Below are positions 1-53,869 of a stretch of DNA of 64,000 nucleotides, in pieces. The DNA lies in the NCBI GenBank assembly GCA_964405835.1, contig CAYOPN010000001.1:51502-115501 (forward strand), given 5' to 3'. The DNA comes from an uncultured Elusimicrobia bacterium (lineage in GTDB: Bacteria; Elusimicrobiota; Elusimicrobia; F11). The notes beneath the pieces were generated by a model, which was given only the letters and a program-made list of their open reading frames with translations, was not told the origin of the DNA and ran no database searches. The translations under genes were made by a program, and so were the position numbers. Each line of letters starts with the position of its first letter. Position 1 is the stretch's first letter.

Positions 1-268
1 CTTTCTTGGCGAACTTCACAAACGTTGTCACGATCTCCTGTGTGTCCACCGTGTAATTGCGCATGACTTTTTTAAGGACTTTGAACATGCCGATTACCTG
101 GCCGATCGGGTAGTTTACGAGTAATGCGCAGAACGTGCCGCCCAGCACGATGCAGAACGCTTCCGCGTTCAAAAAGGGCGCAAACCCTTTCATGCCTTCC
201 GCGTGGAAGACCGTGAAGAAGACCATGAACCCGCCGATCAAAATTCCCGCAATTGTTCCTATGTCCAT
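1..268 (-). CDS. motA: Flagellar-type stator protein MotA/PomA family, N-terminal fragment (gene continues past the left edge)
   Basis: Manual translation of the minus strand from ATG at 268-266 gives MDIGTIAGILIGGFMVFFTVFHAEGMKGFAPFLNAEAFCIVLGGTFCALLVNYPIGQVIGMFKVLKKVMRNYT..., open to position 1. This is the typical MotA/PomA N-terminus (TM1, short loop, TM2). It starts 10 nt inside the end of flbD, the classic flbD-motA arrangement. It is absent from the ORF track because it has no stop codon in the window. Confidence 0.8.
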   Translation of the reverse strand, partial: MDIGTIAGILIGGFMVFFTVFHAEGMKGFAPFLNAEAFCIVLGGTFCALLVNYPIGQVIGMFKVLKKVMRNYTVDTQEIVTTFVKFAKK

Positions 269-462
269 GACATTTCCTTTTTCTGCTTCGTTTGCCGTTG
301 ATATTCGACGATCTTTTCAATCACGACGTTCGCTTTTTCCAAAACGATGATGTTATTGCCGGTGGTCAATGTGATGACCGTGTCCGGCGCGCTCTCCACC
401 TGCTCTATGAGCTCGGCGTTCAACCAAAACTCGGTGCCGTTAAGCCGCCGAAGACAGATCAT
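259..462 (-). CDS. flbD: FlbD (flagellar/swarming stator-associated small protein)
   Basis: The internal Met of track ORF 259..642 gives the 67-aa product MICLRRLNGTEFWLNAELIEQVESAPDTVITLTTGNNIIVLEKANVVIEKIVEYQRQ.... This matches the FlbD family signature (xRLNGxEFxLNAExIExxExxPDTVITL). The upstream 60 codons of the track ORF are R/S/K-rich and overlap the preceding gene, so the shorter start is preferred. Confidence 0.85.
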   Translation of the reverse strand: MICLRRLNGTEFWLNAELIEQVESAPDTVITLTTGNNIIVLEKANVVIEKIVEYQRQTKQKKEMSWT

Positions 463-53225: not shown

Positions 53226-53869
53226 GATTTGCCTCCGGCCATTTCACGAACCTGTTTGTTGCCGTCTCTTTTCAGCTTTTTGAGCGCCGCTTTGGATTCT
53301 TTGGTGTTGTGTTTCTTGAGGCCGAACGCCACCTGCTTGCGAACAAAGGGGTCTTGGTCGTCCGCGGCCTGGGACAATGCCGCCGCAGCCGCCGGTGATT
53401 TGGAAAGGGACAGCGAACGCGCGACCGCCATGCGGACGGAATTCGAAGGGTTGGTTTTCAACGCCGCAATCAGCGCATCAACAACGCCCGGGTTTTGAAC
53501 GTAGTTGCCCAATTCTTGAGCAGCGCCGGTTTGGACCATCGGGTCGGTGTCGGTTTTCAGCGATTCCAGCAGCGTGTCGGAAATTCCGGGCTCTTGCGAG
53601 CGGATGATGTCCTGGTTCAGGCGATGGCGTTTCAGCGGATTTTTCTCGGATGTCCGTGCAGTGCGGATTTCCTTGAGCGTCGGTGTACGATGTTGTTTTT
53701 TATCTTCTGCAATTAAACCGGTTGAACAAATTCCACCCACGAAAACAAAAACGGTCGCCCAGAGGCGTGTGGCTTTGAATATCGCACACGCGCGCGCGAA
53801 AAAGAAAAACTTATATATATGGGCGAACTGCGATTGATTCACGATTATCCCTTCCCTCCTACGCCACAC
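53222..53869 (-). CDS. HEAT-repeat (PBS-lyase-type) protein with N-terminal hydrophobic anchor/signal
   Basis: DPMVQTGAAQELGNY...PGVVDALIAALKTNPSNSVRMAVARSLSLSKSPAAAAALSQAADDQDPFVRKQVAFGL...DGNKQVREMA shows repeated D/N-P-x-VR-xxAA-xxLG HEAT motifs. The hydrophobic segment is LWATVFVFVGGICSTGLIA. The stop TGA overlaps the giant-gene GTG (GTGA at 53222-53225). The likely true start is GTG at 53842, preceded by AGGAGGGAAGGG, rather than 53869. Confidence 0.7.
   Translation of the reverse strand: MWRRREGIIVNQSQFAHIYKFFFFARACAIFKATRLWATVFVFVGGICSTGLIAEDKKQHRTPTLKEIRTARTSEKNPLKRHRLNQDIIRSQEPGISDTLLESLKTDTDPMVQTGAAQELGNYVQNPGVVDALIAALKTNPSNSVRMAVARSLSLSKSPAAAAALSQAADDQDPFVRKQVAFGLKKHNTKESKAALKKLKRDGNKQVREMAGGKS

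Follow-up and report, generated by a model that had tools for sequence, protein, structure and literature searches.

A flagellar-type rotor and stator encoded beside giant surface proteins in Elusimicrobiota: a candidate non-flagellar envelope machine

The subject of this work is a gene cluster in a stretch of 64,000 nucleotides of DNA from an uncultured Elusimicrobia bacterium (GenBank assembly GCA_964405835.1, contig CAYOPN010000001.1, positions 51,502 to 115,501 of the forward strand). We refer to this whole stretch as the window. According to open reading frame (ORF) calls, eight co-directional genes of the minus strand fill positions 1-53869 of the window. In the direction of transcription they encode a HEAT-repeat protein, a giant protein of 14,805 amino acids (aa) that ends in a domain resembling the sorting domains of the type IX secretion system (T9SS), a PorV-like outer-membrane barrel with tetratricopeptide repeats (TPR), a fusion of FliF-like and FliG parts (FliFG) with its own TPR, two coiled-coil proteins, FlbD, and MotA. 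We propose that the cluster encodes a non-flagellar envelope machine made from the torque-generating core of the flagellar motor. Its output would be powered movement or tensioning of a fibre, resulting in gliding-like motility or active attachment. We assign this reading a probability of roughly 0.45. The machine would be driven by the ion-motive force, the fibre would be a surface adhesin roughly half a micrometre long, and a role in fibre export and anchoring is possibly combined with the motor function.

All gene positions are given in window coordinates, and the strand is minus throughout the block; the annotation is based on ORF calling and on Pfam and NCBIfam profiles. An earlier note on this DNA had described consecutive same-strand genes from the HEAT-repeat protein to motA. 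All of them are present where it placed them, and its domain calls hold. The intergenic gaps in this order are -4, +177, +155, +4, +1, -23, and -10 nt. The last five genes, reported in that note as spaced by -23 to +4 nt, are thus separated by the last four of these values. In particular, the stop codon of the HEAT gene overlaps the start of the giant gene by 4 nt, and the FlbD gene overlaps both the upstream gene for the 893-aa coiled coil (23 nt) and motA (10 nt). It had also been observed that canonical flagellar genes are not interspersed here; in fact, profile scans of the window proteins revealed no hook, rod, FliM/N, export-gate, or flagellin genes anywhere in the 64 kb. Profile searches likewise supported the assignments of FliG_C, MotA, FlbD, the PorV family, and the C-terminal sorting domain (CTD).

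Related loci were collected by scanning a set in which each GTDB species is represented by one genome. This resulted in 57 Elusimicrobiota loci, in all of which ORFs were called and compared with the window and with each other. The fusion family comprises proteins of ~600-690 aa, and all its named members come from metagenome-assembled genomes of Elusimicrobia/Elusimicrobiota. The next-best matches of the scan are canonical spirochaete FliG proteins with 36% identity. Most loci share the order large CTD protein, PorV-TPR barrel, FliFG-TPR, Pro-rich coiled coil, FlbD, MotA, MotB, and this order persists even where the FliG-like proteins are only 33-40% identical. The barrel is encoded immediately upstream of FliFG in 40 of the 57 loci, the coiled coil is present in 42, FlbD in 39, MotA in 41, and MotB in 37; many of the loci that miss a component are truncated contigs. 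Conservation of the adjacency was a point on which the proposal of the earlier note depended. The adjacency is retained over this range of divergence and recurs with different giants in very divergent variants of the system.

The divergent variants are the following. In locus L085 (GC content 62%), whose MotA is only 31% identical, the giant has at least 7,555 aa and contains Laminin_G domains. It is accompanied by a CTD passing the TIGR04183 cutoff, a PorV-family barrel-TPR protein, a fusion of a histidine kinase with FliF and FliG, a coiled coil, MotA, MotB, and a lipoprotein. L088 encodes a protein of 16,931 aa, a UPF0164/PorV-like barrel with TPR, FliFG, MotA, MotB, and a membrane coiled coil. 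L089 contains a large fn3 protein, a FecR-like protein, FliFG, MotA, two MotB, and a TPR protein, with a HEAT_2 protein nearby; the two MotB paralogues follow the single MotA consecutively (L089:12426-13849), and the FecR-like protein is encoded upstream of the fusion. In L086 and L087 there are FliFG, a FliG_C-only protein, and a Kelch-repeat giant, and a response regulator adjoins them in L086. The invariant core of these systems is FliFG with MotAB, mutually unrelated giants are its recurrent neighbours, and two such loci have PorV-like barrels.

The recurrence of unrelated giants beside this core argues for functional coupling rather than inherited synteny. The opposite view is that the giant and the barrel are neighbours of the motor genes by inherited synteny only, and that FliFG/FlbD/MotAB serves type IV pilus twitching, envelope maintenance, or polarity. 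The gaps of 155 and 177 nt, which set the barrel and giant genes apart from the tightly packed motor genes, agree with it. So does the downstream housekeeping synteny (IscS, MnmA, Ddl), from which it follows that the region is vertically inherited. Moreover, FliFG-FlbD-MotA-MotB stands alone amid housekeeping genes in a minority of genomes, including a complete chromosome (among the loci are L043, L038, and L040), and L091 has a lone FliFG-MotA-MotB core without FlbD. Uzun et al. (bioRxiv 10.1101/2022.07.08.499144) suggested a link of such genes to twitching or Gld. However, the adjacency recurs in deeply divergent systems in different orders and with unrelated giants (Laminin_G, Kelch, fn3, and the 16,931-aa protein). 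The PorV-like-TPR barrel gene lies directly upstream of the fusion gene in two of these systems (L085 and L088), the genes are all co-directional, and the CTD and the barrel are conserved together beside FliFG. We therefore consider mere synteny to be quite improbable and rank it after the secretion alternative discussed below.

Regulatory domains were observed at several of the divergent fusions: the histidine kinase is fused N-terminally in L085 (L085:8001-10544), and response regulators or a PilZ protein are encoded nearby in other loci (L086:287-670, L091:2532-3339, L088:18684-19481). Since the divergent fusions carry or neighbour such domains, the machine may be controlled by two-component or cyclic di-GMP signalling rather than via CheY and FliM.

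The central component is the 626-aa fusion. It starts with a signal or first transmembrane segment (aa 5-24), which is followed by a periplasmic domain resembling the third ring-building motif of FliF (RBM3; aa 34-180), a second transmembrane segment (~205-228), and an acidic linker. The cytoplasmic half contains FliG_M and FliG_C (aa 295-507), a linker, and TPR (aa 538-622). The FliG half matches the middle and C domains of Thermotoga maritima FliG (1lkv) with an E-value of 3e-38. The FliF-like nature of the periplasmic part, as suggested in the earlier note, gains support from both fold and profile comparison. An AlphaFold2 model of the fusion built with 83 homologues has a pLDDT of 81 and shows an alpha-beta-beta-alpha-beta periplasmic domain. 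When this domain was modelled separately and compared with the PDB by Foldseek, the top 18 matches were all RBM3/collar regions of the FliF MS-ring (E-values from 1e-5 to 3.5e-4, probability 1.0). A profile of the domain found 181 relatives among 1.84 billion representative proteins. One of them is a canonical FliF, matched at its YscJ_FliF_C (RBM3) region with an E-value of 2.7e-5; others are shorter FliF-FliG fusions, and Pfam itself detects YscJ_FliF_C there. Pfam does not detect YscJ_FliF in the window fusion itself.

The RBM3-like domain (~150 aa) is interrupted by an insert of ~50 residues bearing the conserved sequence LLPWVPAPKSV. The family pattern of the insert, [FY][IL]LP[WG]VPxPK[ST]V (residues 98-109 of the fusion), includes three invariant prolines and is the most strongly conserved periplasmic feature. 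It is located where FliF has its beta-collar and is a candidate contact site.

Compared with flagellar proteins, the fusion is reduced. RBM1 and RBM2 are absent, so that a single RBM3-like domain lies between the two membrane segments. FliG_N reaches 17 bits where the cutoff is 25, and even this match lands on the M region; the position before FliG_M is occupied by the transmembrane helix and the acidic linker. The FliM-binding motif EHPQ, kept in all 22 aligned spirochaete FliG proteins and in T. maritima, is replaced with EEPW in nearly all members of the fusion family and with EPPQ or EPPE in four. In the torque helix, the acidic pair equivalent to D288/D289 of Escherichia coli is kept as EE or ES. 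Thus, as far as sequence features indicate, the fusion retains the parts needed for ring formation and for facing the stator, and has lost those that bind FliM, a separate FliF, and the export gate.

The four EPPQ/EPPE members form a subgroup (L023, L032, L041, and L059), in which the L023 ORF is much longer (1,208 aa). FlbD/MotAB were found in none of their four flanks, and a coiled-coil gene is located several kb downstream in three of them, not in L032. A homologue search with a TPR-less fusion (P0254) returned only two proteins.

These features bear on the possibility that the cluster is an ordinary, rearranged flagellar locus and the fusion is simply the fliG of the cell. It is true that FliG_M, FliG_C, FlbD, MotA, and MotB are real homologues of flagellar-type proteins, that the nearest canonical FliG is spirochaetal (36%), and that a full complement of flagellar genes occurs in a few Elusimicrobiota genomes (Uzun et al., bioRxiv 10.1101/2022.07.08.499144). 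However, the fusion cannot be a normal fliG product because an RBM3-like membrane domain is fused to it and FliG_N and EHPQ are missing, along with RBM1/2. Other flagellar genes are absent from the 64 kb and from the regions within 10 kb of the 57 loci. In those regions, among the proteins of a canonical spirochaete flagellar operon, only FliG, FlbD, MotA, and MotB have matches; FliF, FliH, FliI, FliJ, FlgD/E, FliL, FliM, and the rod proteins have none. According to the same study, most free-living Elusimicrobiota lack flagellar structural genes and still carry motAB, flbD, and fliG, and Doud et al. reported flagellar genes to be absent from the Elusimicrobia genomes that they compared. An ordinary flagellar locus, named in the earlier note as the finding that would speak against its proposal, is therefore contradicted by the fusion architecture, by the flanks of the 57 loci, and by the literature. 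This explanation is already largely refuted, and we regard it as very improbable.

The window holds only 89 residues of MotA. The full motA, motB, and the downstream genes were taken from a relative with 79% identity (L002), in which the operon continues with MotA of 262 aa, MotB of 225 aa (with a plug and an OmpA-like domain), and a DsbA-like lipoprotein. The best PDB matches of this MotA are flagellar MotA proteins of Bacillus subtilis and Clostridium sporogenes (E-value 1e-44). The channel aspartate of MotB (YADLMT) is conserved in 35 of 36 loci, and the proline of the fourth transmembrane helix of MotA in 38 of 38. The MotA residue equivalent to R90 is always R or K in the relatives. Since these residues and the acidic residue of FliG are retained, the stator looks functional as judged from its sequence. 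FlbD clears the Pfam gathering cutoff over the full domain.

Four parts were compared with those of an 80% relative: the barrel, the fusion, FlbD, and the C-terminal part of the giant. Their dN/dS ratios are ~0.06-0.11, with dS saturated; against L004 the fusion has ~0.06. These values indicate purifying selection on all four. The slot after motB is occupied by different lipoproteins. In the clade of the window it is the DsbA-like one (L002:18001-18804). In about 25 loci of a more distant clade a lipoprotein of ~230 aa without a Pfam family is encoded directly after motB (for example, L015:13163-14005 and L030:5958-6662). Either of them could be a further component.

Both coiled-coil proteins consist of E, K, R, Q, L, A, and D for 66-68%. 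The 583-aa protein (68%) has a single proline and is confined to the close clade of the window (nine loci). The 893-aa protein has a Pro-rich region in its first ~110 residues, a coiled coil of ~700 aa (no proline in residues 121-754), and a short basic C-terminal tail. A protein encoded between FliFG and FlbD is present in 42 loci; most such proteins begin with MA(E/D)(E/D), and a Pro-rich N-terminus of the PPLPP type is missing from only a few. On the plus strand the AT skew is about -0.30 across window positions 1-6000; the reason is that the coding strand (minus) of the coiled-coil genes is purine-rich owing to Glu, Lys, Arg, and Gln codons.

Coiled coils beside stator proteins raise the possibility of an anti-phage system of the Zorya kind, which uses MotAB-like ZorAB with a long coiled-coil tail; MotB also generically resembles ZorB. 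PADLOC finds no ZorA, ZorC, or ZorD, and MotA here is a flagellar-type protein of the usual length. A decaying flagellar relic is unlikely too because 57 species have intact ORFs, the channel residues are conserved, and dN/dS is ~0.1. Both ideas are refuted at the level of membership, and the probability that we leave to them is negligible.

The giant protein has one hydrophobic helix (aa 8-32), which is the signal peptide, and a unique N-terminal region of ~500 aa. Next come a repeat stalk (aa ~500-11,750), a unique region of ~3,000 aa, and the sorting domain of ~110 aa. Internal repeats were detected in 49 of 59 tiles of 250 aa. The protein is rich in T, S, A, G, V, and N, contains 0.1% Cys, and has weak Ig-like Pfam matches (Big_13, Big_3_2, and Big_7). 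It is called a putative adhesin on the basis of its composition and these weak matches. PDB sequence searches with its first 600 aa and with the unique C-terminal region of 2,945 aa gave no match. At window positions 42300-45700 (aa ~2500-3630 of the giant) two stalk stretches of ~500 aa, offset by ~625 aa, are 50-63% identical; the corresponding values for other repeats are 25-40%, which points to a recent internal duplication.

The sorting domain is 45-50% identical among the giants of distant loci, and the rest of the giants have diverged. The family pattern is NYPNPFD ... WDG ... GGY ... IRKIGVIH. The T9SS type A sorting domain profile TIGR04183 matches 16 of 17 family copies at E<=0.01; with 17.2 bits, the window copy stays below the cutoff of 23, and the L085 copy scores 33 bits. 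All 17 copies match the C-terminal domain of PorU, and the best PDB match is PorU 6za2 (residues 1054-1149, E-value 1.5e-5). By sequence, the domain appears to be closest to the retained C-terminal domains of PorU and PorZ. In T9SS, it is PorU and PorZ whose C-terminal domains are retained, and through these domains the two proteins are seated on PorV and PorQ. The analogy suggests that the C-terminal domain of the giant may serve as its anchor to the neighbouring barrel.

A homologue search with the last 120 aa of the giant returned only 14 fragments on short contigs. Short database proteins annotated as FlgD (P0121-P0134) are mostly C-terminal fragments of such giants. In one nanopore contig (L084, ENA contig_219910_np1212) a copy of the cluster is split into many short ORFs by frameshifts. 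L085 encodes, in addition to its giant, a 122-aa protein (L085:5664-6029) made up of a signal peptide and a type A sorting domain (33 bits vs the cutoff of 23). It ends with ...WKIGVIH, in the manner of the giants; its gene sits between those of the giant and the PorV-like barrel.

The barrel spans aa ~73-352 of its protein, and the TPR, presumably periplasmic, spans aa ~362-566. The score against the NCBIfam profile PorV_fam (NF033709) is 119 bits with a cutoff of 90. A profile of 29 barrel-TPR family members matches the solved PorV 6h3i_F of the SprA-PorV complex with an E-value of 7.5e-13. The equivalog profiles score far under their cutoffs (T9SS_OM_PorV 44 vs 250, PorQ 53 vs 220, and PorV2 63 vs 325 bits); therefore the barrel is a member of the PorV/PorQ family and not an orthologue of any of these proteins.

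The main rival to our reading starts from these two proteins. The motor would only energise the passage of the giant through the outer membrane and its loading on the barrel, and the adhesin would then be static, as in a T9SS-analogous secretion and attachment system. The T9SS CTD/PorV pathway requires a MotAB-like motor, PorLM or GldLM. The relatives of the CTD and the barrel thus belong to a motor-needing secretion and attachment pathway, with the CTD nearest to those of PorU and PorZ and the barrel in the PorV/PorQ family, and the stand-alone CTD protein of L085 hints at a general sorting signal. However, SprA/Sov, PorK/L/M/N (GldK-N), and PorU are found neither among the annotated window genes nor among the conserved neighbours in the relatives. 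The motor output is cytoplasmic, through FliG, unlike the long periplasmic shaft of PorM/GldM. Long cytoplasmic coiled coils and the TPR on FliG are hard to account for in this way, and the core exists without a barrel or a giant nearby. We consider a purely secretory role unlikely.

The machine that we propose would work as follows. The fusion would assemble into a ring, as RBM3 of FliF does. A peptidoglycan-anchored MotA5B2 stator would turn or push this ring via the torque helix of FliG, through the R90 equivalent of MotA and the acidic pair of FliG. The periplasmic collar of the ring would couple to the PorV-like barrel through the TPR of the latter, and the barrel would grip the giant fibre by its C-terminal domain in the manner of PorV-PorU and PorQ-PorZ. 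In the cytoplasm, the TPR and the Pro-rich coiled coils may stand in for the FliM/FliN C-ring as a scaffold or tether. The earlier note proposed that a rotor and stator derived from flagellar parts were recruited to a giant adhesin. Its parts list is borne out, and the fusion and the conserved linkage found here support the proposal; the role in export, anchoring, or movement keeps its conjectural standing. In a stronger version, a Sec-exported, CTD-anchored, single-polypeptide fibre of about half a micrometre is rotated, reeled, or driven over the surface by the FliF-FliG ring, in the whole phylum and in other uncultivated lineages, with no type III export, rod, hook, or C-ring. We hold this version to be doubtful.

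Several observations weigh against the proposed machine. The Foldseek TM-scores of the FliF match are low (0.33-0.42), an effect of the insert in the RBM3-like domain, which the monomer model leaves disordered; this disorder is itself a weakness. One canonical rotor-stator charge pair (R281-E98) is lost: the FliG R281 equivalent is Gly in the fusion family, the MotA E98 equivalent is mostly Gln, with Glu in some loci, and no clean pattern of covariation was seen between the two. The window includes neither motB nor the remainder of motA, for which relatives are the only source. The stand-alone cores described above imply that the motor need not serve a giant protein. We did not identify an outer-membrane translocon for the 14,805-aa protein. 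The ring, its rotation, and the periplasmic contact are putative. Finally, the literature describes cultured members of Elusimicrobia as non-motile (Uzun et al., bioRxiv 10.1101/2022.07.08.499144).

The coordinates of the block and of the adjacent gene are collected in Table 1. The real start codon of the barrel gene is possibly downstream of position 8630. The 161-aa protein with a clear signal peptide is encoded just upstream of the HEAT gene, and the flanks of the relatives end at their giants; its membership in the system is uncertain. Beyond 54.5 kb there are housekeeping genes: FolD, a diacylglycerol kinase-like protein, DUF520, RNase H, UDP-GlcNAc 2-epimerase, a GT4 transferase, serine hydroxymethyltransferase, Sua5, and ArgJ. 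When the intergenic regions were scanned for promoters and terminators, no signal exceeding chance was seen at or near the gene junctions. Searches for exact matches to the window FliFG and 583-aa proteins gave no record, and FlbD was found only on a 1.2-kb ENA contig.

Table 1. Features of the cluster in window coordinates
Feature	Position	Strand	Evidence
Predicted secreted protein, 161 aa	53972..54457	-	ORF; signal-like N-terminus MKNITQTIVFLTLVLTAGIIHA; Pfam: no match
HEAT-repeat protein, 215 aa, hydrophobic N-terminal segment	53222..53869	-	Pfam HEAT_2 77 bits
Giant surface protein, 14,805 aa	8808..53225	-	Single ORF, no internal stops
T9SS-type sorting/anchoring domain, ~110 aa, C-terminus of the giant	8811..9140	-	NYPNPVD ... 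IRKIGIIN
PorV/PorQ-family barrel + TPR, 571 aa	6915..8630	-	PorV_fam 119 bits; Pfam TPR_2, TPR_1, Toluene_X, UPF0164
FliF-FliG mini-fusion + TPR, 626 aa	4879..6759	-	Pfam FliG_C 98 bits, FliG_M 53 bits
Cytoplasmic coiled coil, 583 aa	3123..4874	-	No signal peptide; composition
Pro-rich coiled coil, 893 aa	440..3121	-	Sequence; weak SMC-like coiled-coil matches (NCBIfam)
FlbD, 67 aa	259..462	-	PF06289 91.9 bits vs cutoff 24.7, profile positions 1-57 of 59
motA, 5' part of 89 codons, truncated at the window edge	1..268 (coding positions 2-268)	-	Best NCBIfam matches MotP, MotA, PomA

To our knowledge, FliG and FliF have been described as working only within flagella. We found no natural conserved FliF-FliG fusion with true MotAB stators outside the flagellum in the searchable literature, and the full-text literature searched contained no description of the fusion, its partners, or the link to a giant. 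The orphan motAB, flbD, and fliG genes of non-flagellated Elusimicrobiota have been noted: Uzun et al. (bioRxiv 10.1101/2022.07.08.499144) listed KEGG matches and called the role of these motor genes unclear. That study did not describe the FliF-FliG fusion, the TPRs, the coiled coils, the PorV-like barrel, or the link to a giant CTD protein; its orphan genes are almost certainly those of the present cluster. The combination was presented in the earlier note as undescribed. This holds for the architecture in the literature that we searched, and does not hold for the co-occurrence of orphan motAB, flbD, and fliG, which had already been mentioned in passing. The architecture appears to be new as a system, with a function that we deduce throughout from sequence.

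If this is a working machine, the torque core of the flagellum is a portable module that can exist with or without type III export, which bears on the evolutionary assembly of the flagellum. An explanation would be at hand for the enigmatic motor genes (motAB, flbD, and fliG) that non-flagellated Elusimicrobiota carry. Giant proteins, which are frequent in Elusimicrobiota and uncharacterised, would gain their first functional context in a phylum where they are unusually common. T9SS-type sorting domains and PorV-like barrels would be tied to a wholly different motor. If the reading as a motility or attachment organelle is true, bacteria deemed non-motile have a new kind of motility or active capture. 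The system is also attractive for structural work on rotor-stator interaction because of its small size, with a single rotor protein, a pair of stator proteins, and FlbD.

Among known systems, the cluster is like the flagellar motor of the spirochaete/Firmicute type in FliG_M/C, the RBM3-like domain, FlbD (SwrD), and MotA/MotB with the plug, the channel Asp, and the OmpA-like domain. It also recalls the gene order of spirochaete operons, fliF-fliG ... flbD-motA-motB. It differs from the flagellar motor in that FliF and FliG form a single polypeptide with an added TPR; RBM1/2, FliG_N, and EHPQ are absent; no FliM/N, export-gate, rod, hook, or filament gene is nearby; and the host phylum is largely non-flagellated. 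FliF-FliG fusion mutants of Salmonella have been reported to be functional. FliF-FliG fusions made in the laboratory (PDB 8z4d/8z4g) show a similar covalent 1:1 link, and their chain is matched by both the FliG part and the N-terminal fold of the natural protein. The laboratory fusion has 945 aa, whereas the natural one has 626 aa and is reduced to RBM3 and FliG_MC.

Like Bacteroidota T9SS and gliding systems, the cluster combines a giant repetitive CTD protein, a dedicated neighbouring barrel of the PorV/PorQ family, and an ion-driven motor of the 5:2 type. In contrast to them, flagellar MotAB acts here on a FliG rotor instead of GldLM with a periplasmic shaft, and the barrel carries TPR. SprA, GldK/N, GldJ, and PorU are not seen locally, and the host phylum lies outside the FCB group. 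The Agl-Glt machinery of Myxococcus with its adhesin CglB is similar in design: an inner-membrane ion motor, TPR, a cytoplasmic coiled coil, an outer-membrane barrel platform, and a surface adhesin. However, the parts are not homologous: the Agl motor is of the TolQR type and that of the cluster is flagellar, MotA/MotP/PomA-like, and Glt proteins were not identified. The system thus resembles the flagellar motor, the T9SS gliding apparatus, and Agl-Glt in its working and is a member of none of them.

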